Positions 1-10,949 of a DNA stretch of 10,949 nucleotides are shown one piece after another; position 1 is the first letter of the stretch, and the number at the start of each line of letters is the position of its first letter. The notes beneath the pieces are model-generated. The model made no database searches. It saw nothing but the letters and a program-made list of their open reading frames with translations, and had not been told where the DNA came from. Source of the stretch: a virus (Duplodnaviria > Heunggongvirae > Uroviricota > Caudoviricetes); the IMG/VR virus record IMGVR_UViG_2630968911_000004, positions 1-10,949 of that record. One strand, 5' to 3'. The position numbers were made by a program, and so were the translations under genes.

Positions 1-201
1 TTACCCATTGGCGCGGCTTAAGAGCTTATTTTTGAATTCACAATGGTCACGATATAACCATCTTGCTCGCCCGTGGATAACTTTGGCTTTTGGCAGGTCG
101 CCTGACTTAATCCGGTCATAGATGAAGGTTTTACCAAAGCCAGTATCAGCCATGATGAATTTCAAATCAACCAGTGAATCAGGCTGTAGTTCGTGTTGCA
201 T
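1..201 (-). CDS. torI: Xis-like recombination directionality factor (excisionase) TorI, 66 aa, winged-helix
   Basis: ATG at 199-201 and TAA at 1-3 on the minus strand; GGAGA SD about 9 nt upstream. The 66 aa product matches my recollection of KplE1 TorI in length and sequence and is AlpA/Xis-like. The gene is complete and ends exactly at the window edge. Confidence 0.85.
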   Translation of the reverse strand: MQHELQPDSLVDLKFIMADTGFGKTFIYDRIKSGDLPKAKVIHGRARWLYRDHCEFKNKLLSRANG

Positions 202-220
202 GAGTGCTATCTCCGAATAG

Positions 221-236
221 GGAATCGAACCTGCAA
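221..236 (-). other. tRNA T-arm-like 16-mer (minus-strand TTGCAGGTTCGATTCC) in the torI upstream region
   Basis: Read directly. It contains the GGTTCGATTCC T-loop signature and matches the T-arm segment of argW tRNA-Arg as I recall it, but the flanks are not tRNA-like and the acceptor/CCA end is absent. Confidence 0.3.
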
Positions 237-332
237 ATCAGGTAATAAAAATACGCTCTATGACGGCGATGGTAGATCAGGATATTTTAAGAAACTGACA
301 GGCCTCATCGAGTGTGAGGCTGTATGGCTCCA

Positions 333-677
333 TTATTTCACCTCTTGCTGTGACATTGTTGAAAAACGGATACCAGCTCGTTGCTGCCAGACGATCCAAC
401 CGAGAGTCATATCCCATGCCATGTATTCGTTATCGCCGTTTTTTGCTCTCCGACGATCGACTGTTTTACCGAAACGCTTTTCCATAAATAATTCATAGGC
501 TGCGCGTTCATCTGGCTCAACTTCCAGAGATGCCAGTGCAATCCGTGCCAGTTCTAAATCATTTTCAAGCTCAGCGCGAATCTCAGCGAATGCACTCTGT
601 GTTAAGGCGAACTCAATGCTCTGCACTTTATTCCGTGCGCGCTCAAGCAGTGCATGGTAGTTAATTTCGGTTGTCAT
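333..677 (-). CDS. hypothetical protein, 114 aa
   Basis: Its ATG at 675-677 overlaps the TGA of the upstream PAPS-reductase-like gene (ATGA overlap), supporting translational coupling. No recognisable domain. Confidence 0.65.
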   Translation of the reverse strand: MTTEINYHALLERARNKVQSIEFALTQSAFAEIRAELENDLELARIALASLEVEPDERAAYELFMEKRFGKTVDRRRAKNGDNEYMAWDMTLGWIVWQQRAGIRFSTMSQQEVK

Positions 678-1552
678 ACCCCTACCTCTTCGAATTCCAA
701 TTCCAATTGATCACCCCAGATTTCACATGACTCTGAACACGAACCGGTATCGAATCGCCTGGCCTGTACCATCGCCTGATACAAATTTCTGTAGTCGCTG
801 TTGGCAGACATTCTGGCAATTCCGTCAAGCGTCAGGTGACCACGGTACATAATGTCTTTACCTGTTCTGCGATGACCATCCCTGACGTGTTTGCCTGTAA
901 CCAGCTCATTAAAAACTCGCATCAGACCTGGTTCGTCTTTACATGCAAGCTCCAGCTTTTGCGTTGACTTTTTGATGCAGAAAACACAGTTCCCGAGATG
1001 CTCCGGGATTTGCAAATCAAAAGGTTGTTTTCGCCACCACCGGATAACATCCGACTTATCAAAATCTGACAGCTCGGCAAGATACCGGACGCCCGATTTC
1101 GGTTTCAGCCTACGGGGTTCGTCTGCACGAATACCCAGCCATGTGATGTAATTACCTCGCCCGAAATGGTTATCGCAGTATTTCGTGAAAGGGATGAGTT
1201 TTAGCCTGTCAGTACAGAACGCGCCGCCGATGTATGGCGTGCCGTACTTTTTAACCATGTCCATAAACGGTTTAAGCACCGGCATTCGTGTCTGAATATC
1301 CTTTGGCTCCCATTCTGTATAACCATTTGGCTGCCCAAGCTCAGGATTTATATCGACTTGTAACACAGTTAGTGGTATGTCCCAGAACTTTACAACCTCC
1401 CGGATAAAGCGGTATGTCAGCGGATGTTCGCAACCGGTATCCATAAAGATGTAGCAGACGTTATTGCCAGCCTTTCTTTGTTCTTCCATCAGGTGAACAA
1501 GATATGCGGATGTTCTCCCGCCAGAAAAACTAACTACATGAGTTATGCACAT
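674..1552 (-). CDS. PAPS reductase-like / PP-loop ATP pyrophosphatase family protein, about 292 aa
   Basis: N-terminal VVSFSGGRTSAYLVHLM is a PP-loop SGGxxS-type motif typical of the PAPS_reduct fold; C-terminal Cys clusters (GNCVFC, CSESC). Start chosen at ATG 1550-1552, which overlaps the stop of the upstream HD gene (ATGTGCATAA). The 331 aa track ORF's upstream extension is read through the preceding gene and rejected. Confidence 0.75.
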   Translation of the reverse strand: MCITHVVSFSGGRTSAYLVHLMEEQRKAGNNVCYIFMDTGCEHPLTYRFIREVVKFWDIPLTVLQVDINPELGQPNGYTEWEPKDIQTRMPVLKPFMDMVKKYGTPYIGGAFCTDRLKLIPFTKYCDNHFGRGNYITWLGIRADEPRRLKPKSGVRYLAELSDFDKSDVIRWWRKQPFDLQIPEHLGNCVFCIKKSTQKLELACKDEPGLMRVFNELVTGKHVRDGHRRTGKDIMYRGHLTLDGIARMSANSDYRNLYQAMVQARRFDTGSCSESCEIWGDQLELEFEEVGV

Positions 1553-2079
1553 TTGCGTAATTCCGATAACTCGTTGAAGCGTTCCATAAACATCCCGTAG
1601 GCATGGCCCGGTGCCAGTGGAATAACTTTGAACATCTCTGTTGCCGGGATACCTTCCAGTACAGGCCATAAAGAGCCATCATCAAGCCCGAGATCACGGC
1701 GTTCGGTTGCCAGCATAATGAGATCGGCATATTTCACTGGCGTGCTCATAACAGGAGGTAACCCGTATTTCTCACGGATTACTGCATCTATTTTTTCTTC
1801 CATCCGTTTATAGTCAGGAAGAAGGCGTTTCAGTGGTGCGGGGATGTCCTGGCAATACGCTTCTGTTGCATCATGCATTAACGCTTCAAAAGCAAATTCC
1901 TGCGGCACCAGCTGGCTGCAAAGCACCGCATGTTGGGCGACACTGTAGAAGTGAGAAAGATGACCGGCAAAGCGACAGATATTTGAAAGGGAAACCGCGA
2001 TATCGTTAATCACGATGTCGTCTTTATTTATCTTGTCATAATAAAAATGCTTCCCGGAAAAAGTTTTAATAAATGACAT
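1543..2079 (-). CDS. yfdR: HD-domain phosphohydrolase, 178 aa (YfdR-like)
   Basis: H...HD metal-binding motifs (SVAQHAV, LMHDATEAY). Start set at ATG 2077-2079, preceded by GGAG with 6 nt spacing; this gives 178 aa, the length of K-12 YfdR. The track's longer ORF begins at a non-ATG codon at 2104-2106. Confidence 0.8.
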   Translation of the reverse strand: MSFIKTFSGKHFYYDKINKDDIVINDIAVSLSNICRFAGHLSHFYSVAQHAVLCSQLVPQEFAFEALMHDATEAYCQDIPAPLKRLLPDYKRMEEKIDAVIREKYGLPPVMSTPVKYADLIMLATERRDLGLDDGSLWPVLEGIPATEMFKVIPLAPGHAYGMFMERFNELSELRKCA

Positions 2080-2172
2080 TTTGTTCTCCACGTATATGCG
2101 CTGCACCGCGCTGAGTTTGGGTAAAAGGAAGCCCTCACCATCCGGTGATTATTGAGTTAATTACGTTTCCAT

Positions 2173-2194
2173 AAATGCCCCCGCAGGGGCATTT
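2173..2194 (-). terminator. GC-rich hairpin (AAATGCCCC-CGCA-GGGGCATTT) between yfdQ and yfdR; possible attenuator or intra-operon terminator
   Basis: Perfect 9 bp stem with 4 nt loop read directly. The downstream U-tract on the minus strand is weak (AUUUAUGG), so function is uncertain. Confidence 0.35.
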
Positions 2195-2206
2195 GCAGTA
2201 ATGAAA

Positions 2207-3031
2207 TCAGGCGGTGAAAGTACCAATAAAGGTTTCTACTTTGCTGTCTTTGAATTTCTCAACAAGCAGATCACGAAATTCGTTAGCCATATCTTCCTGC
2301 ACCGCTTCCAGCTGAATAATGCGCAGAACCAGTACAGGACGATCGCCAGTGATAATGCTGAGGCGTAATTTAAACGGACGTTCTTTCAGACCTTCAAACG
2401 GAACGCATTTAAATTCAAATGCCACTGGCATAATGTCTTTGGTCTTCGCTTCGACAGATTCCATCAGGGAGCGTTTGCCGCTGAAGTCATTATCTTCAAA
2501 ATCAGCGGTCTGGTTTGCTTCAATCGTGATTTTACGGATTGCCGCAGCCGCTTTTGTTGCCTGAATGGCGTCACCATTAGCATCAAAGCCCACAAGGTAG
2601 TCGGCCCAGTCTTCAATCCATTCTGCCAGTGATTTCTGGGAGTTACGCTCGCCGTTAACAGACAACAGGGCAGAGAACGGTGCTGTCTTTTTCAGTTTGA
2701 GAGTGGCGGTGTTATCTGCGTGACCTGGTTCATCAATAGTACCCAGGTTAAGCACACTGACGGCACGCATATTATCAGCATCGATAAAGCAGCGGGTGCC
2801 TTCATCTGCAAGATCTTTAGAATAACGGGTAAAGTCATCGATGCTGGCAGTGGAAAGCGCACCACGGAAACGGAAGCGATTTAAATTAAATTTTTCCAGA
2901 TCATGAATGCGGAAATTCTCAGGCAATGCCACAGCATCGGCACCAATCTTACTGATAATTTCATTAACACCCTGAGCAGAAATAAGGGCATGGATTTGAT
3001 TAATTGCGGTTGCGTCTAAGTTCTGAGACAT
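2207..3031 (-). CDS. yfdQ: uncharacterized prophage protein, 274 aa (YfdQ-like)
   Basis: Clean 274 aa ORF with ATG at 3029-3031 and GAGGA SD 7 nt upstream. Length and position (between yfdP and yfdR) match K-12 KplE1 YfdQ as recalled. Confidence 0.8.
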
Positions 3032-3096
3032 AATAAGTCCTCACTATATTAAGATATTCAGTGATGAGATAAATAATCAGTTAATTAAGAACGATA

Positions 3097-3459
3097 TTAA
3101 TGACCTGCTGCGCGGAGTTTTCCGTCAGGCTCACCGGCAAGAGTCAGTAATTGTCCCTGGTCTTCCTGCAGAATAGTCAGGCGACCACCGCGATTGACAT
3201 ACATCGGCGTTTCGGTGGTGTCTTCTTCGGAAATTTTCCCACGGTTAGTCGGGCGAACATATGAGAGTTTGTGTTTGATTTTCACACGGTTCTCATCAAA
3301 TGGTTCGATTTCCAGGTTGAGTGAGACCTTACCTTTGGTTTTCGTGTTCATCACACCGGAAGCGACTTCACTGAGAACTGCGCCGATTTTGGTTTCAAAT
3401 ACGCCGCCGTCCAGCTCCCCGATAAATGCCTGCACATCAGTACTGCGTTCGCTAGCCAT
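3097..3459 (-). CDS. yfdP: uncharacterized prophage protein, 120 aa (YfdP-like)
   Basis: Internal ATG at 3457-3459 preceded by GAGGAG SD; product MASERSTDVQAFIGELDGG... is 120 aa. The track ORF's upstream extension to 3777 is Arg-rich, lacks an RBS and is rejected. Confidence 0.75.
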   Translation of the reverse strand: MASERSTDVQAFIGELDGGVFETKIGAVLSEVASGVMNTKTKGKVSLNLEIEPFDENRVKIKHKLSYVRPTNRGKISEEDTTETPMYVNRGGRLTILQEDQGQLLTLAGEPDGKLRAAGH

Positions 3460-3479
3460 TTTGCTGCTCCTCATCATAT

Positions 3480-3896
3480 CGACCCTGCAAGGCCGATTAG
3501 TTTCTCCACAAAACAGAGAAGAACACCTGCGGTGGCAGCCGCCCGGATGGATTGGGTTATGAGCCCGTCGTCCGGTGATGCTCTTCTCTGTTTTGTAAAA
3601 AGGACGGTACCAGCCGGAAGCAAGGGTACAAACTGGTACCGCCAGGACTACACACAGCATAAAGTTGTGGTGCCGGGTGCCTCCCGGTGCCTGGCGAAGG
3701 TTGCACACCAGACGGGTGGGTATCCACAGAAGGTCGACTGTCAGCCTCAACCTTAACCCGCGTGCGCTGAGCCGCATTCACCACAACGCCAAGGATTCTC
3801 TTTGGTTGAAAATACTTAGCTGTTATGTGCCTGTCTTTTCACCACTTCAGGCTCGGTGGTATCCTTTTAAGCCCGTATACATAAAAGGAAAATCAA
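3480..3896. other. GC-rich non-coding island with nested inverted repeats; candidate structured RNA or cis-acting site
   Basis: No protein-like frame on either strand. 15 bp perfect inverted repeat 3508-3522 / 3582-3596 encloses a 59 nt GC-rich segment with internal GCGG/CCGC and CCGGA/TCCGG pairings; 8 bp stem GGTACCAG / CTGGTACC at 3606-3613 / 3633-3640; tandem CCGGGTGCCT / CCCGGTGCCT. Confidence 0.3.
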
Positions 3897-4142
3897 ATGA
3901 CTTTTGATGAAAAAGAACTTGATAATGCAATTAATAAAATCATCGTAACGTCGCTCTTTTCCTGTCTCAGCGACACTCAGCAGAAACAGTTCTACGAATC
4001 GGCTTTCAACATGATCGAGAGTTGTTGTTTCTGCGATGCCGACGAGTTACCTGAAATAATCAGGAAACAGTTGGCTGATGCTCTTCGAGTGCGACTTTCT
4101 GACCAATTTTCTGAAATGTGCTCTCCGAATTTGGACAAATAG
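3897..4142 (+). CDS. hypothetical small acidic Cys-containing protein, 81 aa
   Basis: ATG 3897 preceded by AAGGAA SD at 6 nt; plausible helical C-terminus. Its 3' end overlaps the convergent minus-strand ORF 4060..4335 by 83 nt, so one of the two may be mis-called. Confidence 0.5.
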   Translation: MTFDEKELDNAINKIIVTSLFSCLSDTQQKQFYESAFNMIESCCFCDADELPEIIRKQLADALRVRLSDQFSEMCSPNLDK

Positions 4143-4335
4143 AAAAAGGCCATTTCCATTCAGGGTCTGATGGAAATACTTCAGCCTGTTCCAAAGCACG
4201 GCGTAAAGAGAATACAACTCCAGCCATAGCCTGATGTTTCCCATTGGTCCAGCTATCGCCGCTCTGATCTACAGGAGCGGCTATGTCGTATGACCAAACG
4301 ACTTCACCACTATTGTTTAAAATCTGGACTTTCAT
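4060..4335 (-). CDS. hypothetical protein, 91 aa
   Basis: ATG 4333-4335 with GGAGG upstream (spacing about 12 nt) and 8 nt downstream of the ClpX-ZBD-like gene, so operonic. N-terminal 60 aa look protein-like; the C-terminal 28 aa are antisense to ORF 3897..4142. Confidence 0.5.
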   Translation of the reverse strand: MKVQILNNSGEVVWSYDIAAPVDQSGDSWTNGKHQAMAGVVFSLRRALEQAEVFPSDPEWKWPFSICPNSESTFQKIGQKVALEEHQPTVS

Positions 4336-4343
4336 TTTGTTCT

Positions 4344-4547
4344 TTAACCTCCAGATTTCCGCGCATCTAAAGGTGCATTCTCATTTGGTGTGAACTGAAT
4401 AGTTGTGCTGATATTGATTAATGCTCCGACACACAAGACTACGCACTCAGAGCAGATAGCAACTTCATCTTTTCCGCCTTTGGCGATGATTTTTTTTGCC
4501 TGCAGCTCGTTTGCGCCACAAAACGAGCATGTGAAATAACGGTTCAT
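4344..4547 (-). CDS. stand-alone ClpX-type zinc-binding-domain (zf-C4_ClpX-like) protein, 67 aa
   Basis: FTCSFCGANELQAKKIIAKGGKDEVAICSECVVLC aligns with the ClpX N-terminal zinc-binding domain as recalled ([32 protein letters not shown]), including all four Cys. Start set at the second ATG (4545-4547), which has a weak GAGAG SD; the first ATG (4565) has none. Confidence 0.65.
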   Translation of the reverse strand: MNRYFTCSFCGANELQAKKIIAKGGKDEVAICSECVVLCVGALINISTTIQFTPNENAPLDARKSGG

Positions 4548-4649
4548 TTGCGCTCTCTTACACATAGTATTTAACGAATCATCCGGTCATTCATACGCCA
4601 CCGGCGGCTACTTCGTGGGCGTCCTGCCTGTTCGTTATCTTTGACATAA

Positions 4650-4678
4650 AATCTAACTTAACTTAGTTATTATGGCAA
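4650..4678 (-). promoter_or_regulatory. candidate leftward early promoter (PL-like) with an overlapping CTTAGTT operator-like repeat
   Basis: Minus strand: -35 TTGCCA (plus 4673-4678), 17 nt spacer, -10 TAGATT (plus 4650-4655). The spacer contains one copy of the CTTAGTT heptamer that recurs in the OR region. No experimental support; sigma-70 fit is moderate. Confidence 0.3.
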
Positions 4679-4709
4679 GAGAAAACACCAAACTTTTCTT
4701 AGTTCGGTG
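4676..4709 (-). terminator. candidate intrinsic terminator downstream of the cI-like repressor
   Basis: Minus-strand RNA CACCGAACU-AAGAAA-AGUUUGGUG (9 bp stem with one G-U pair) followed by UUUUCUCUUG, beginning about 22 nt after the repressor stop. Confidence 0.4.
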
Positions 4710-4731
4710 CCTTAGTTAGAGAAGAGAGGTC

Positions 4732-5358
4732 TTAGAGTTCGTATTGAACTCCTTTGACTACACCAATGATAAGGCAATTACCATTGATAGGGATGTTGGG
4801 ATACCGAGGATTTAATGGCACTAAAAACTTTTGAGGGCCATCGATGACTAATTTTTTTACTGTAGCTTCGTTTGTTCCATCAAGTCGAGCGATGACTATT
4901 TTTCCATGACGAGGTTCTGCATCTGGATCTACAATCACTGTTGCGCCTTCTGGTATTGTTGGGAGGCCATTAGGGTTAGTCATGGAGTCACCTTTAACCT
5001 CTAATGCAAATGAGTTATCACCAATCTTTAATGATGTATCTACCCACTTGTCCACTTCACTAAACACTTCTGCTGCCCTGCACTCAGTAAACTGCCCAGC
5101 CTGAACCCACGATATTACAGGAACTCTGCGCATGTTTGTGACGAGTTTGCCTTCAAACTCAGCACCATAAAGAATGTAATCTATTGACGTATTGAAGAAC
5201 TTCGCTAATTTCGAAAGTGCCTCCCCACCAGGGGTATTGATGTCTTTCTCCCAGTACCCCACAGCAACGTCGCTTACTCCACAAAATTTACCCAATTCTT
5301 TCTGGGACGTTCTGGTAACTCTTCTCAGAGCTTTTATACGCTGACCAACCGTTTCCAT
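4732..5358 (-). CDS. CI-like prophage repressor, 208 aa (N-terminal HTH, C-terminal S24/LexA-type autopeptidase)
   Basis: N-terminal HTH_XRE-like segment (QKELGKFCGVSDVAVGYWEKD) and C-terminal GDSM catalytic-Ser motif with a downstream Lys. Divergent from the Cro-like gene. Confidence 0.9.
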   Translation of the reverse strand: METVGQRIKALRRVTRTSQKELGKFCGVSDVAVGYWEKDINTPGGEALSKLAKFFNTSIDYILYGAEFEGKLVTNMRRVPVISWVQAGQFTECRAAEVFSEVDKWVDTSLKIGDNSFALEVKGDSMTNPNGLPTIPEGATVIVDPDAEPRHGKIVIARLDGTNEATVKKLVIDGPQKFLVPLNPRYPNIPINGNCLIIGVVKGVQYEL

Positions 5359-5455
5359 AGGAGCACCATTTCTTGAATTGCTAAGTAATCTTAGTTTTTA
5401 TTGACCAAAGATAGATTTGTAATTAGCATCTAATAAAACTTAGTTTGGAGGGCGT
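5359..5455. promoter_or_regulatory. divergent OR-like regulatory region between repressor and cro-like gene, with a PR candidate and a palindromic operator candidate
   Basis: Plus strand: -35 TTGACC (5401-5406), 17 nt spacer, -10 TAGCAT (5424-5429), GGAGG SD at about 5447-5451 before ATG 5456. Palindrome CTAAG-TAAT-CTTAG at 5381-5394; further CTTAGTT at 5438-5444. Confidence 0.5.
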
Positions 5456-5656
5456 ATGACAACTGACGATATCGAAAGCTACTTCGGCAGTATTGAGAAA
5501 GTTGCTGCTTTTTTCGGCATAACAACTGAAGCCGTTTATCAGTGGCGAAACCGTCCGGGCCAGTTAATTCCAAAAGGACGTGCAGCAGAAGCTGCATATA
5601 GAACTTGCGGACGGTTGCCATTTAAACCTGAGCTTTATGAAAAATCTAATGGATAA
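5456..5656 (+). CDS. Cro-like HTH regulator, 66 aa (YdaS/Cro family-like)
   Basis: Small basic protein immediately downstream of the PR candidate, divergent from the repressor. Central segment (SIEKVAAFFGITTEAVYQWRNRPGQLIP) resembles the YdaS/Cro-type HTH. Confidence 0.8.
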   Translation: MTTDDIESYFGSIEKVAAFFGITTEAVYQWRNRPGQLIPKGRAAEAAYRTCGRLPFKPELYEKSNG

Positions 5657-6251
5657 ATCGATTAACAGAAACCACAGAACGATGAGGCTAACCGTGGGTA
5701 AGCATCACTGGAAAGTAGAAAAACAGCCTGAGTGGTACGTGAAAGCTGTCAGAAAAACTATCGCAAAGTTGCCGGGTGGTTACGCTGAAGCAGCTGACTG
5801 GCTGGATGTAACAGAGAACGCATTATTTAACCGCCTTCGTGCTGATGGCGATCAGATTTTCCCGCTGGGATGGGCAATGATTTTGCAACGTGCTGGTGGA
5901 ACTCACTTCATTGCTGATGCTGTGGCGCAGTCTGCTAATGGCGTCTTTGTGTCTCTTCCTGACGTCGAGGATGTGGACAACGCCGATATTAACCAGCGTC
6001 TGCTGGAAGTCATTGAACAGATCGGCAGTTATTCAAAACAGATTCGTTCAGCAATCGAAGACGGTGTAGTGGAACCGCATGAGAAGACAGCAATTAACGA
6101 CGAGCTGTATCTCTCAATTTCGAAGCTGCAGGAGCATGCAGCACTTGTCTACAAAATTTTTTGCATTTCAGAAAGTAATGACGCCCGCGAGTGTGCAGCT
6201 CCGGGCGTCGTGGCGTCGATTGCTTCTGGTTGTGGAGAAACTAACGCATGA
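5637..6251 (+). CDS. CII-like regulatory protein (phage 186 CII / Phage_CP76 family-like), about 204 aa
   Basis: Located immediately after cro. Segment [36 protein letters not shown] follows the pattern of the phage 186 CII core as I recall it. Start is uncertain: ATG 5637 or 5649, or the GTG 5580 used by the track; none has a strong SD. Confidence 0.65.
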
Positions 6252-6586
6252 ACAGTTTAACAACACACTACCGTCGCTCGCAACTGATTGCGCTTCCTGT
6301 ACCGGGTGGAAAAGCGAAGGTGGAGTATTGCTATGCAGTAAATGTACCAGGTGACAGGGAAATTGTAACCCACAGCTTTGCAGAGTGGGCTGTGGGTGAT
6401 TTCAACCGGCAGAAGGAGACAGTCCTTTGCGACAAGTTAACCGCTGGTTCAAAGATCACTACGGAGTGCCCGTCAGAGTCATTCGTTGGGAGCCGGAAAC
6501 ACAACGGGTTATCTACCTCCGCGAAGGCTATGAGCATGAGTGCTTCAGTCCGCTCGAACAGTTTCGTCGTAAATTCAGGGAAATAG
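6248..6586 (+). CDS. hypothetical protein; 3' portion is probably out of frame (frameshift or pseudogene)
   Basis: ATG 6248 overlaps the TGA of the CII-like gene (ATGA). The first 60 aa look protein-like but the C-terminal third is Ser-rich and junk-like, while a different frame is clearly protein-like from about 6430 to 6603. Confidence 0.35.
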
Positions 6587-6603
6587 AGGTCGGTCATGAG
6601 CAC
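6427..6603 (+). CDS. candidate small protein, 58 aa, TTG start (not in the supplied ORF track)
   Basis: AAGGAG SD at 6413-6418, 8 nt spacer, TTG at 6427-6429; product [59 protein letters not shown]; TAA at 6601-6603 overlaps the next gene's ATG region. It may instead be the frameshifted C-terminus of the 6248 gene. Confidence 0.35.
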
Positions 6604-6856
6604 TAAATTAACCGGCTATGTATGGGATGGTTGCGCAGCGTCAGGCATGAAATTATCCAGCGTGGCAATTATGGCCCGCCTGGCTGATTTCAGTAATGAC
6701 GAAGGTGTGTGCTGGCCATCAATTGAAACCATTGCCCGCCAGATTGGCGCGGGGATGAGTACCGTCAGAACGGCTATCGCACGGCTGGAAGCAGAAGGCT
6801 GGTTAACGCGTAAGGCGCGTCGCCAGGGTATCCGGAGTAATCCATGCATCGTATAG
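6596..6856 (+). CDS. winged-helix (HTH_36-like) phage replication-protein N-terminal domain protein, 86 aa; possibly truncated
   Basis: AGAGG SD 6 nt upstream of ATG 6596. Segment [50 protein letters not shown] is the wHTH seen at the N-terminus of phage replication initiators. The ORF ends 13 nt into the tail fiber gene, with no replication or structural genes between. Confidence 0.65.
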
Positions 6857-7776
6857 ACACGAAAACCGCGCAGAAGGATAAGTTCGGCGCGGGTAAGAAC
6901 GGTTTTACCCGTGGTAACCCCCAGACCGGCACACCTGCCACCGATCTGGATGATGACTACTTTGACATGTTGCAGGAAGAACTTTGTAGCGTGGTGGAGG
7001 CCTCCGGTGCCAGCCTGGAGAAGGAGCGGCACGACCAGTTGCTTACCGCGCTTCGTGCGCTGCTGTTAAGCCGCAAGAATCCGTTTGGTGATATCAAATC
7101 GGATGGCACGGTGAAAACGGCTCTCGAAAACCTTGGTTTGGGAGATGGCTCGGGGCGTTACAGCAAAACTGTCGTTTTTTCATCGTCGGGTTCATATACG
7201 TGGCCAGCTGACGTAAAACGAATTGACGTTATTCTGACTGCGGCGGGCGGCGGTGGCGGTGGATGTAACGCGGAGAACGCAAATCAGACATTTTCAGGGG
7301 CTGGCGGAGGAGCCGGAGGTACTGTTTTTGCCACTATTTATGCGACAGACAACGATGCCGGGCCAGGAACCTATACAGTGACAATTGGCAGCGGTGGTAG
7401 TGGTGCCAATGGGTCAGGGTCTGGAAATAATGGCGGTAATAGTTCGTTCATGACATTAACTGCGCTCGGCGGCCAGGGTGGGCAATGGGGCGGCGCTACA
7501 AATACCGCTGGCGGGCGCGGTGGCTCAGGCTCTGGCGGTTATAAAACTGAACAAGGCGGAGACGGTTCAGACGGACAGGCGGGCCAGGCGCTATTAGTAG
7601 GCAATGGGGCATCGAGCTATTGGGGTGGCGGCGGCCGCGCTGGGCAACTGAGCGGTAATCCTGGAGTTTGCTCTGGCTCCGGCGGCGGGGGTGCATACGA
7701 TAATAGCTATTCACACACGTCAGGACGTGGCGGGCACGGAGCTAATGGCGTGCTGGTAATTCGGGAGTACATGTAA
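6844..7776 (+). CDS. phage tail fiber protein, 310 aa, Gly-rich C-terminal repeats
   Basis: GGAG SD 6 nt upstream of ATG 6844; the frame has a stop immediately upstream, so there is no hidden N-terminal extension. Long Gly/Ser/Ala/Asn-rich repeats are typical of side tail fiber distal domains. Followed directly by a tail fiber assembly gene. Confidence 0.85.
7121..7146. other. Hin/Gin/Pin-family invertase crossover-like site inside the tail fiber gene
   Basis: CTCTCGAAAACC-TT-GGTTTGGGAGAT with a perfect 12 bp palindromic core AAACC-TT-GGTTT. By my recollection it resembles hixL (TTCTTGAAAACC-AA-GGTTTTTGATAA) and gix, matching about 10 of 12 positions in the left half and 8 of 12 in the right half against hixL. 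Confidence 0.35.
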
Positions 7777-8181
7777 ATGAATGATATCTATGCAGTTGTT
7801 GATAATAACGTTGTTATTAATGTCATTATCTGGGACGGAATTTCTGAATGGAAACCAGAGGCTGGTAATTTAGTTCCGTTAAACGGCGATGCTGGCATCG
7901 GTTGGTCATATTCAGACGGAGTATTTACCGCGCCACCTCCCCCAGAACGCTCTCACAACGCGTTAGTTGCGGAGGCTGAGCTGCAGAAATCAGCACTACT
8001 GACCGTAGCAAATAACGCAATAGCACCGCTGCAGGATGCCGTTGATTTGGAAATGGTGACAGACGATGAACAGGCGTTACTGCTGGCGTGGAAAAAATAC
8101 AGGGTACTGCTGAACCGTGTTGATACCTCAGCGGCACCCGAAATAGAGTGGCCTACGCAACCGGGGGAGCGGGCCAGTTGA
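7777..8181 (+). CDS. tail fiber assembly protein (Tfa/Caudo_TAP family), 134 aa
   Basis: C-terminal [44 protein letters not shown] closely matches the lambda Tfa C-terminus as recalled. ATG 7777 immediately follows the tail fiber stop. Confidence 0.85.
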
Positions 8182-8302
8182 TATCAGGCGCAGCGTCAGC
8201 ATCAACTGCTGTCACTGCGTCGATGTAGTCGAGTACCGCATTCAGCCGCGTTTTTTCATCATCAGTCAGTTTGCGGCCTGCACTTCTCCGTTGACATCTT
8301 TG
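8153..8302 (-). pseudogene. remnant of a second, inverted tail fiber assembly gene (tfaS-like), C-terminal about 40 codons only
   Basis: Minus-strand frame encodes ...[38 protein letters not shown], with the Tfa C-terminal signature (APDI-WP). It has no start codon and is bounded upstream by TAA (plus 8303-8305). It converges on and overlaps the intact tfa 3' end by about 29 nt. Confidence 0.5.
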
Positions 8303-8522
8303 TTATATGGTACAACTGCGCAGAGGCCTGTCTCTTCAATTGTGCCAGTTGAATACTACGATACAACGCTCGGCCTTCCTGTTTGGTGGAACATTACCAC
8401 ATCTACGAGGAAAAGAGCTTACGGTACTAATACTTAGACTTTAAATTTATTTTCGTTTATTAATCATTGAAGTAAAACAAATTATTAGGCGAAAATGTAG
8501 CGAATTTATGTACTTATACATG

Positions 8523-8569
8523 TTACCCTGAAGGAAAATTCTTTTAATAAACCTTCTCCTTCAGGGTAA
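8523..8569. repeat. 13 bp perfect inverted repeat (TTACCCTGAAGGA / TCCTTCAGGGTAA) with a 21 nt AT-rich loop, just 3' of gtrC
   Basis: Read directly. It sits 6 nt downstream of the gtrC stop, at the junction between the AT-rich gtr module and the tail fiber module. Could be a bidirectional terminator or a protein-binding site; no clean U-tract. Confidence 0.4.
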
Positions 8570-8574
8570 AATAA

Positions 8575-10032
8575 TTATTTGACGTAAATGTGGTTTCTGT
8601 ATTTGACAAAAATCACATCACACACACTTTCAATATCTTCAGGTTGACCATAAATTTTCTTCACAATATTCAATTGTTCTTTATTCTCAAGAATAAAGAA
8701 ATTATTTCCTTTGTTATACCATTCGCTATTTGTAAGCCAGTTGTCTCTTTTAATTTCATTGTTATTAAAAAGTATATTTGCTATTTTTATGTCTCCATTC
8801 ACACCAACAGAGTTGGTAAATGCAAAAGGGGCATATCCATAATTTACTTTGTGCTCGTTGATTTTTTCTCTAATACATGATATCTGATTGTATCTATTAT
8901 CAGTGGAGCCATTAATATTTATTGTTTTAATTCCTGATATGATGCCCAAAAAAGCTATTAATAAAATAATGCTTTTTTTATTAAATTTAGATCTTGACAA
9001 AAGAATTACTGCCATAATGAAGACGGGAACAAGGTATCTTATTGTCCATATATTTCTTGGGAGGTTACTACCAATATAAGCAGATGTCATGATTAAAATA
9101 GACAATGACAAACATATATCAATAACGCTTCTGTTTTTAAAAAGATTTCTGAAAGTGAAGTAAATTAATGCAACAACACCAGCAAAGCGTATTGCTTTAG
9201 ATAATAGATGCAGTGATGGTGTTATCTGCTCACCAAATATGTCTGCATTAAAAAACAATAAAGTTCCACTTACTGCGGTATTTATATTAACTAAAATATT
9301 GTCATACTCAACAATCTTTACATCTGTTAGTCCTGGCAATGTAAAGCTTCCAAGGTTTAAAAACAAAAAACCGATCGCCTTGGAAATTAAATATGAAGAA
9401 AACAATCCAGCCATTATAATAAGGTATTTCTTTTTTCTTTCCTTGTGCAACAAAAACATTGCTGCTAATGTTAGCGGTGCAACGTATATATAGACTGAGA
9501 TATTATCGCTAAAAATAGCCATAGAGGACAGTATGGTTGAAAAGTATACAAATAATATTTTTTCTGTTTTAATATACTTTTCTGTAAATATTAAGCATCC
9601 AATGATAAATATGTATGTACCCATGTGAATGCACGCTGAAAGCATTGATGTAACAGCCATGTCAGCAGGAAAAACAAAGTAGAATATAATTAGCGCTAAT
9701 GCTAATGATTTATTTGTAGACAGCCTGTATATCAAAAATATCACAGTAGCATACATCGCTGGTGGTATTATATATGCAAGCTCACTGCTGTAGCCAAATA
9801 ATATAGAGGCGATCGCATAAAAAGATACTTCTGTAAAGTAAAAAGGAACCGTGGATAGCATCCATCCATGAAGTAAGTAATTACCTTCTGACATATCCTT
9901 ACCAAGCAAAAGCACTGTTGCCGCATCTGTATTTGGTGGGAATATGTTTAAGCTGGCAAAGTGATATAGCATAAATAATGACGCAAATAATAAAATTACG
10001 AATATAAATTTAATTTGTTTTTTGAAAATCAT
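8575..10032 (-). CDS. GtrC-type serotype-specific O-antigen glucosyltransferase, polytopic membrane protein, 485 aa (YfdI-like position)
   Basis: Very AT-rich, highly hydrophobic with many predicted TM segments. Its ATG (10030-10032) overlaps the gtrB stop (TAATG), so it is translationally coupled downstream of gtrB, the canonical position of gtrC. Confidence 0.8.
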   Translation of the reverse strand: MIFKKQIKFIFVILLFASLFMLYHFASLNIFPPNTDAATVLLLGKDMSEGNYLLHGWMLSTVPFYFTEVSFYAIASILFGYSSELAYIIPPAMYATVIFLIYRLSTNKSLALALIIFYFVFPADMAVTSMLSACIHMGTYIFIIGCLIFTEKYIKTEKILFVYFSTILSSMAIFSDNISVYIYVAPLTLAAMFLLHKERKKKYLIIMAGLFSSYLISKAIGFLFLNLGSFTLPGLTDVKIVEYDNILVNINTAVSGTLLFFNADIFGEQITPSLHLLSKAIRFAGVVALIYFTFRNLFKNRSVIDICLSLSILIMTSAYIGSNLPRNIWTIRYLVPVFIMAVILLSRSKFNKKSIILLIAFLGIISGIKTININGSTDNRYNQISCIREKINEHKVNYGYAPFAFTNSVGVNGDIKIANILFNNNEIKRDNWLTNSEWYNKGNNFFILENKEQLNIVKKIYGQPEDIESVCDVIFVKYRNHIYVK

Positions 10033-10949
10033 TATTTATTATCCTTTAATATATACTTTGGACGCTGCTTAACCTCAACGTAGATACGCCCTATGTACTC
10101 ACCTAGCACTCCAATACCAATTAACTGGATGCCGCCAAGAAATAATATTGATACAAGAATTGAAGGGTATCCAGGTACATTATTACCAAAAATTAATTTA
10201 TCAATTATCATCCATGAACCGTATGTAAATGATATACATGCAATAAATAACCCAATATAGGTCCACATGCGCAGCGGGAATGTTGAGAAGCTAGTGATCC
10301 CTTCCAGCGCCAAGTTCCAGAGCTTCCATCCATTGAACTTTGTGCTTCCTGCAACGCGTTCTGCTCGCGCATATTCTACGACTTCGGTTCGACCACCAAC
10401 CCAGCTCAGCACACCCTTCATAAACAGGTTTCGTTCTGGCATGAGCTTAATGTTTTCCACTACTTCGCGAGACATGAGCCGGAAGTCGCCAACATTCTCT
10501 TCTATCTGAGGGTTGCTGATTTTGTTATGAAGTTTATAGAACCACTCAGCAGATTTACGCTTCAGCCTGCTGTCAGTGGAGCGGTCAGAGCGTTTAGCCA
10601 GAACCATATCTGCACCGGCCTGCCATTTCTCTATCAAGTGAGGAATAACTTCGATAGGGTCTTGCAGATCAACGTCAATCGGGATAATTGCCTCCCCGGT
10701 AGCATGGTCCAGACCTGCGAACAGGGCGGGTTCTTTGCCGAAGTTACGTGTGAACGACAGCGAAACAACAAGCGGGTCGGCAACAGCAAGCTCGTTGATA
10801 ATTGATTCTGTAGCGTCTTTGCTGCCATCGTTTATGAAGACTATCTCGACTTCATGCTGCTGAAGCCCTTCAAATTCGCGCACAGTTTTATAAAAAATAG
10901 GTATCGTGGCCTCTTCGTTAAAGACCGGAACGACTAAAGAAATTTTCAT
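10032..10949 (-). CDS. gtrB: bactoprenol glucosyltransferase GtrB (GT2 family), 305 aa
   Basis: Near-identity over the full length to E. coli YfdH/GtrB as I recall it ([13 protein letters not shown]..., DGSKDATE..., C-terminal TM helices). ATG at 10947-10949, so the gene is complete and starts exactly at the window edge. Confidence 0.9.

Follow-up and report, generated by a model that had tools for sequence, protein, structure and literature searches.

An orphan pix-type crossover site, very probably the relic of an invertible switch, at the module junction of a tail-fiber gene in a decayed CPS-53/SfV-type prophage

Introduction

Hin and Gin belong, with Cin and Pin, to the Din family of serine DNA invertases, and they need two crossover sites and an enhancer in cis on supercoiled DNA. 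For Hin, Gin and Cin, this recombinational enhancer depends on Fis and is contained in the 5' portion of the invertase gene itself, and in a functional inversion system the second, inverted site is present in cis, typically 1-4 kb away. The hix sites of Salmonella control a promoter, not a fiber gene. The gix and cix sites lie within a tail-fiber gene, at the boundary between its conserved N-terminal part (Sc) and its variable receptor-binding part (Sv), which is also the location of the site described here.

The closest described system is the P segment of the e14 element of Escherichia coli K-12. Its sites are inverted repeats that end a segment of 1,797 bp, and the segment is inverted by PinE, PinQ and PinR alike (PMC12529663). 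The same study found that Pin enzymes act in trans on the e14 fiber genes, blocking phage adsorption (PMC12529663). The curated sites are pixL (TTCTCCCAAACC-AA-GGTTTTCGAGAG) and pixR (TTCTCCCAAACC-AA-CGTTTATGAAAA), both with the AA/TT core that likewise occurs in hixL and cixL (PMC3241671 Table 3).

Here we describe a stretch of DNA of 10,949 nucleotides from a tailed-phage record (IMG/VR record IMGVR_UViG_2630968911_000004, positions 1 to 10,949; hereafter the window), in which a pix-type site lies within an intact tail-fiber gene. We conclude that this site is very probably vestigial: an orphan orthologue of pixL that marks a junction in a fiber gene descended from an invertible switch.

Results

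The nearest complete genome is that of E. coli G4/9 (NZ_CP060073.1), with which the window is 99.8% identical over positions 1,423,355-1,434,286. In G4/9 the region is a prophage of the CPS-53/KpLE1 type (SfV-like), situated beside intS and tRNA-Arg (argW in K-12). Upstream, the fiber gene is preceded by genes for an S24/LexA-like repressor and a CII-like protein (ymfL in the G4/9 annotation) and by a replication HTH gene that is truncated. Downstream, the minus strand carries two genes: one of 485 aa, which occupies the place that yfdI has in K-12, and one for a family-2 glycosyltransferase (gtrB-like). The complete version of the prophage is present in strain T-HYM1, where this fiber gene comes after Mu-like baseplate genes and ymfQ. 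From the window, some 25 kb of late genes have been lost, including all the morphogenesis genes. The junction of this deletion (6826..6835) fuses the HTH gene to the fiber gene: the left parent reads ...GGGTA/ACCGC, the right parent ...AAATA/TCCGG, and the window ...GGGTA/TCCGG..., with the break at ~6830/6831. Between the break and the fiber ATG there are 13 nt, and the ribosome-binding site, GGAG, is retained. The window is a decayed, deleted CPS-53/SfV-type prophage at argW.

Several further features of this region were observed. The truncated HTH ORF (6596..6856) now ends 13 nt inside the fiber ORF, and after the deletion the fiber and tail fiber assembly genes may be transcribed from the repressor-controlled early-right operon. 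Directly past the stop of the 485-aa minus-strand gene (8575..10032), an inverted repeat of 19 nt, 89% complementary and with a loop of 15 nt (8520-8572), is probably the terminator of that gene. The G4/9 genome has many annotated frameshifts (for example in the gtrB-like gene and in the ycgH, bluF, ariR region), while the gtrB-like and 485-aa ORFs of the window are intact, so that much of the 0.2% difference may be assembly error in G4/9. In two other E. coli genomes (NZ_AP045805.1 ~2918626-2919905, H88, and NZ_CP042893.1 ~2673567-2674723, H90), the same DUF4222 and HTH early genes adjoin a gp53-like fiber fragment and pinE, a layout suggesting that e14-like elements have undergone large deletions of their late region independently of one another.

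The palindrome that concerns us spans 26 bp at 7121-7146, CTCTCGAAAACCTTGGTTTGGGAGAT, and consists of two 12-bp half-sites around a TT dinucleotide (CTCTCGAAAACC-TT-GGTTTGGGAGAT). It covers codons 93-101 (A-L-E-N-L-G-L-G-D) of the 310-aa tail-fiber ORF at 6844..7776 (+). Sequence and reading frame thus agree with the first-pass annotation, which had described a 26-bp site with a perfect core embedded in frame in the tail-fiber gene. The perfect core, AAACCNNGGTTT, is present once in the window compared with 0.02 copies expected from shuffled sequences. With up to three mismatches allowed, the full 26-mer did not occur at all in shuffles of 26 kb or of 12.5 kb. The core pattern with two mismatches is at the level of chance (6 in the window against 6.3 expected) and is uninformative.

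The reverse complement of the site reads ATCTCCCAAACC-AA-GGTTTTCGAGAG and is equal to pixL at 25 of 26 positions; it is nearer to pix than to gix, cix or hix (PMC3241671 Table 3). At the sequence level it is a Din-family crossover site. Its sole departure from pixL and from the dix consensus is position 1 of this strand (A for T). Read along the gene this is the outermost base (T for A), and it turns codon 101 into Asp, not Glu. The left P-segment site of K-12 e14 also matches at 25 of 26 positions, and the site aligns with K-12 e14 stfP together with 302 nt of the flanking gene; its orthologue there is one end of the 1,797-bp segment that PinE, PinQ and PinR have been shown to invert (PMC12529663). 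By sequence comparison, 7121-7146 is a genuine copy of the crossover site on which Pin of E. coli acts, and it is the orthologue of pixL in the P segment of e14. The TT at 7133..7134 (AA on the other strand) is, by analogy with the cores of known sites, the predicted point of cutting and strand exchange by a Din enzyme.

The gene that harbors the site is a single ORF with two modules, StfP-type at the N-terminus and Gly-rich at the C-terminus (PF21722 at residues 114-307). Its N-terminal domain (residues 1-75, 6844..7068, +) is common to e14 StfP, SfV orf21, Yersinia YeP1 and Edwardsiella EPP-1 according to protein alignment, and presumably serves for baseplate attachment, since it opens the fiber gene. 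Next come a linker cassette of ~80 bp (7069..7146, +), at the end of which the site lies, and the variable Gly-rich module (7147..7776, +), which is presumably receptor-binding. The next gene (7777..8181, +) encodes a tail fiber assembly protein (Tfa) of 134 aa (Pfam Caudo_TAP, E = 1.8e-32). A genome-contig search with the Gly-rich module returned no relatives.

Several lines of evidence place the site at the junction between the constant and the variable part of the gene, where the first-pass annotation had put it. Homology of the fiber gene to e14, SfV, SfI, SfII, SfIV, the viral locus L056 and phage 606R2 breaks at 7145/7146. In the BLAST search against phage genomes, SfV, SfI, SfII and SfIV match only up to query position 302, which is window position 7145. 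The e14 stfP gene, which carries CTCTCGAAAACCTTGGTTTGGGAGAA at the same codons as the window site, aligns over the first 302 nt with scattered differences only (~96% DNA identity), and the similarity collapses right after; e14 and SfV homology stops before the Gly-rich module. The Pfam domain Gly_rich_2 (PF21722) starts at residue 114. The location is therefore that of the Sc/Sv boundary. The RefSeq/PGAP annotation of G4/9 (1430198-1431130) splits the intact 310-aa ORF into a 'StfP pseudogene, missing C-terminus' and a 212-aa 'glycine-rich domain-containing protein'. The point of division coincides with the crossover site, and all genomes examined show this split. As a division of an intact fiber ORF it is an annotation artefact.

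The distribution of the linker cassette follows that of inversion systems. Both the cassette and the site are missing from YeP1 and EPP-1, in which the N-terminal ~75 residues are present and no invertase is found. Phage 606R2, on the other hand, combines an invertase with an unrelated N-terminus, and its fiber gene contains the cassette at ~95% DNA identity. The site-bearing segment thus goes with inversion systems or their relics, and not with the N-terminal domain.

Downstream of tfa, the window retains part of a second assembly gene in the opposite orientation (tfa'). This stub (8153..8290, -) comprises the last ~45 codons of a TfaE-like gene: 8156-8290 on the minus strand matches residues 156-200 of the 200-aa e14 TfaE at 67% identity (E = 2e-9), and PGAP annotates the same stretch in G4/9 as a tail fiber assembly pseudogene without its N-terminus. 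The inverted tfa remnant previously suspected downstream of the fiber gene is thus real. The stub is convergent with tfa and overlaps its 3' end by 29 bp. An equal overlap of 29 bp is found between tfaP and tfaE in e14, between yfdK and tfaS in K-12 CPS-53, and between the two tfa genes of the intact locus L056. The same stub accompanies this Gly-rich module in every genome or contig, irrespective of what lies downstream (gtrABC variants or an acyltransferase), which indicates that the truncation is old and fixed in the lineage.

The other parts of an inversion system were not found. The window contains no second site or half-site in either orientation, and no second site is present in 26 kb of the near-identical sequence of G4/9. 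Six-frame tblastn searches of the window with PinE and a relative 56% identical to it gave a best E value of 0.7, and no invertase is annotated in G4/9 within 12 kb on either side of the site. The window has one variable fiber end and one complete tfa only, and no remnant of an alternative fiber end (stf') was found in it. The locus therefore has no inverted second site in cis, no adjacent serine invertase and no pair of opposed fiber ends with tfa genes, which are parts of a functional inversion system. All complete genomes and viral contigs with this Gly-rich module are collinear. Within the sequences searched, the loss of the invertase and the second crossover site proposed in the first-pass annotation is borne out.

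Orphan sites of this kind are common. We surveyed 120 IMG/VR loci with an exact 20-mer of the site, 56 of which have at least 2.7 kb of sequence downstream. In 38 of these 56, an inverted partner site lies 1.5-2.1 kb away with a pin gene ~80 bp beyond it (complete in 21 loci, partial in 17), and 16 have neither the partner site nor a pin gene. A second sample was picked by the 92 N-terminal residues alone and contained 66 loci with enough downstream sequence: 34 of them are orphans and 21 intact, and the remaining 11 have an invertase with a partner site off the search pattern. The exact 26-mer of the window is carried by 10 of the 34 orphans. Several other orphans have degenerate right halves, while intact systems almost always keep GGTTTGGGAGA, a comparison that is descriptive because the loci are phylogenetically clustered. 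Orphans of this kind make up about half of the related viral contigs.

In the 120 site-bearing loci we also observed that 11 (L018, L021, L024, L033, L035, L041, L081, L104, L107, L121 and L128) end ~2-3 nt past the 20-mer. L018 at least is a true contig end, and the pattern is as expected when assemblers break at an inverting or repeated segment.

Intact relatives show the layout from which the locus could have been derived. In e14 the second site is inverted and lies just upstream of pinE, so that the two sites bracket stfP'-tfaP-tfaE-stfE'. L056 is a complete segment built on the N-terminus found in the window: it has a 287-aa fiber gene with a 145-aa tfa, then in inverted orientation a tfa' of 200 aa and an stf' of 165 aa, and also the partner site and a 187-aa invertase. 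The Gly-rich module of the window (96% amino acid identity) is itself found with its tfa in L157, as the promoterless inner copy in an intact invertible segment of 1.9 kb. One border of the L157 segment is TTTTCAAAAACG-TT-GGTTTGGGAGAT, beside a 193-aa gene 84% identical to PinE; the other is an inverted TTCTACAAAACC-TT-GGTTTGGGAGAT inside a 504-aa fiber gene, whose N-terminus, in our own reading of the sequence, presumably resembles that of P2 gpH. Together with the stub and its 29-bp overlap, L056 and L157 bear out the earlier suggestion that the tail-fiber gene once sat in an invertible segment. As a separate observation, L157 (5336-8700) has two different Gly-rich ends for the 504-aa fiber gene and one tfa, which would be co-oriented with one end only.

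The right half-site of L157, GGTTTGGGAGAT, is identical to that of the window, with its unusual terminal T included. The window site is therefore a chimera of a StfP-type left half and the right half that belongs to the Gly-rich module. Such a chimera is the pattern expected from module exchange at or around sites of this type.

We explored the possibility that the site is still live, that is, that an enzyme of the Pin family such as PinQ pairs it with a distant or incoming dix-type site, producing a large chromosomal inversion or acquiring a new receptor-binding module from a different prophage or from a phage that infects the cell. In its favor, the site is nearly identical to the working pixL and is itself chimeric, with a StfP-type left and a Gly-rich right half. 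Mosaic breakpoints in many lineages also lie at or inside the site, several of them right at the core dinucleotide. PinQ, PinR and PinE all act in trans on the e14 sites (PMC12529663).

The nearest complete genome does contain such an enzyme. We searched G4/9 with a specific anchor of 3.2 kb, alone as a baseline and with an invertase query added, and counted the matching places in BLAST. The addition of pinE raised the count from 3 to 4, and the extra match is an intact pinQ at 2,244,784-2,245,374, in the Qin remnant and 0.81 Mb from the site. This remnant (2240905-2245374 of NZ_CP060073.1, L133) has pinQ beside tfaQ and a 5'-truncated fiber gene, an orphan invertase in a genome with an orphan site. 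No dix-type site was found beside pinQ. Genome-wide, junction-anchored queries detected no second copy of the StfP N-terminus with the site in G4/9, and they indicate that the sole extra match is a paralogous HTH gene; counts of this kind would overlook a 26-bp site standing alone, or an invertase so diverged that blastn does not match it. The icd gene of G4/9 is uninterrupted, indicating the absence of e14, and so is ttcA, indicating the absence of Rac. Of the proposal that partners elsewhere in the genome could act in trans, the part that concerns the invertase is thus upheld by pinQ, but the part that concerns a second site found no counterpart in G4/9. The enzyme is probably available in this strain, yet no partner site was found for it.

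Further evidence against a live site comes from K-12. The strain MG1655 has the orphan site of CPS-53, the e14 sites and three pin genes, but in a whole-genome inversion screen of an MG1655 derivative the e14 segment alone was inverted (PMC4272514). BLAST surveys with CPS-53 as query likewise gave no inversions (PMC12529663). An orphan site would also be at a disadvantage if Pin enzymes share the requirement of Hin and Gin for two sites and a cis enhancer on supercoiled DNA. Taken together, continued activity of the window site appears improbable.

Discussion

Our results support the reading that the site at 7121-7146 is very probably a vestige of an invertible switch. The ancestral layout would have comprised a constant fiber N-terminus, the site, a variable end with its tfa, an inverted tfa' with an alternative end, an inverted site and pin. 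Pin would have flipped the ~1.5-2.1 kb between the sites and thereby swapped the receptor-binding end of the fiber. In the lineage of the window, a deletion would then have taken most of tfa', the alternative fiber end, the second site and the invertase gene, and, by analogy with Hin and Gin, a Fis-dependent enhancer was presumably lost along with the latter. What is left would be one site and a tfa' stub of 45 codons, beside genes for O-antigen modification. The order of these events is inferred. With no partner site detected there is nothing for an enzyme to invert, and the remaining site can invert nothing.

One observation counts against a fossil: the palindromic core is still perfect, and the outermost base alone has changed, so that the sequence by itself does not mark the site as inactive. 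The whole N-terminal module is ~96% identical among the E. coli and Shigella copies, and 0-1 changes in 26 bp are expected from recency alone, which makes the conservation of the site uninformative about any constraint beyond that of coding. The site probably persists because the ALENLGLGD linker is encoded there and because the lineage is young, with recent shared ancestry.

The history could also have been different if the SfV/CPS-53 lineage never had a working inversion system, and instead received the block (site, Gly-rich end, tfa and tfa' stub) in a form already truncated, through recombination with an e14-like or P2-like element. The stub is identical in all argW-type prophages with this module that were sampled, SfV has the site but neither the stub nor an invertase, and the ~80-bp cassette, ~95% identical between unrelated fiber genes, would offer ample homology for such an exchange. 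K-12 CPS-53, however, has a longer stub of 101 codons and a different variable module, which speaks for separate, independent stages of decay inside the lineage and against a single imported fragment. We consider the import of a truncated block to be improbable, slightly more so than continued activity of the site. As the block descends from an invertible segment either way, it would alter the history and not the identity of the site.

That the palindrome is a mere coincidence of coding LENLGLG, unrelated to invertases, is effectively refuted: the site does lie wholly in a conserved coding segment, much of which protein constraint alone could conserve, but 25 of its 26 positions agree with those of a functionally defined site, its segment is absent from the invertase-less homologues of YeP1 and EPP-1 and present in an unrelated fiber gene with an invertase, and in 38 of 56 loci the same 20-mer is accompanied by an inverted partner site and a complete or partial pin gene.

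Orphan sites of this type could be docking points at which Pin-family recombinases acting in trans, here PinQ, occasionally join the conserved fiber N-terminus to a new receptor-binding module brought by another prophage or an infecting phage, or make large chromosomal inversions, an idea to which we give very little credence. If true, it would mean that site-specific recombination, besides homologous exchange, drives the mosaicism of tail fibers and possibly an adsorption-blocking defence based on Stf. The finding that Pin enzymes act in trans (PMC12529663) makes the use of orphan sites a reasonable question; the evidence presented here argues against it.

As a vestige of an inversion system, the locus is a well-documented example of the decay of a host-range switch, in which one site and the stub of an opposite tfa survive in and beside an intact fiber ORF. 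Orphan sites are common, in about half of the related viral contigs and also in K-12 CPS-53, and a dix-type site alone is therefore no evidence of phase variation.

The comparison with known systems clarifies what kind of element this is. Like gix (Mu G), cix (P1 C) and hix (Salmonella H), the window site has inverted half-sites of 12 bp and a 2-bp core, and it follows the dix consensus except at position 1. Those sites, however, are paired and functional with an adjacent invertase, and in sequence the window site resembles pix more than it does any of these. Shigella phage SfV (orf21/orf22) shares the N-terminal module, the absence of an invertase and the gtr genes downstream, and its site is identical to pixL. 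In contrast to the window, SfV is a phage that is complete and viable; its variable end is a different one, and an inverted tfa stub is not annotated in it.

The K-12 prophage CPS-53 (KpLE1) agrees with the window in prophage type, in integration site and in the order of an orphan site in a fiber gene, tfa, an inverted stub and gtr genes, with no invertase. Its site, identical to pixL, lies in the yfdL pseudogene, followed by yfdK and the 101-codon tfaS stub. The fiber gene of CPS-53 is 5'-truncated and has an SfV-like end, whereas that of the window is a full-length ORF with a Gly-rich end, and the window differs further in its 45-codon stub and in its other large deletion.

To the e14 P segment with its pixL and pixR sites, the window is similar in the site itself (25 of 26 positions, with the TT/AA core), in the StfP N-terminus (~96% DNA identity over 302 nt), in the position of the junction and in the 29-bp overlap of tfa and tfa'. 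It differs from e14 in the absence of pixR, pinE and the alternative fiber end, in a tfa' reduced to a 45-codon stub, in its Gly-rich variable module, and in belonging to an argW prophage of the SfV/CPS-53 type instead of an element at icd. The site in the window adds one more instance to a well-known kind of element.
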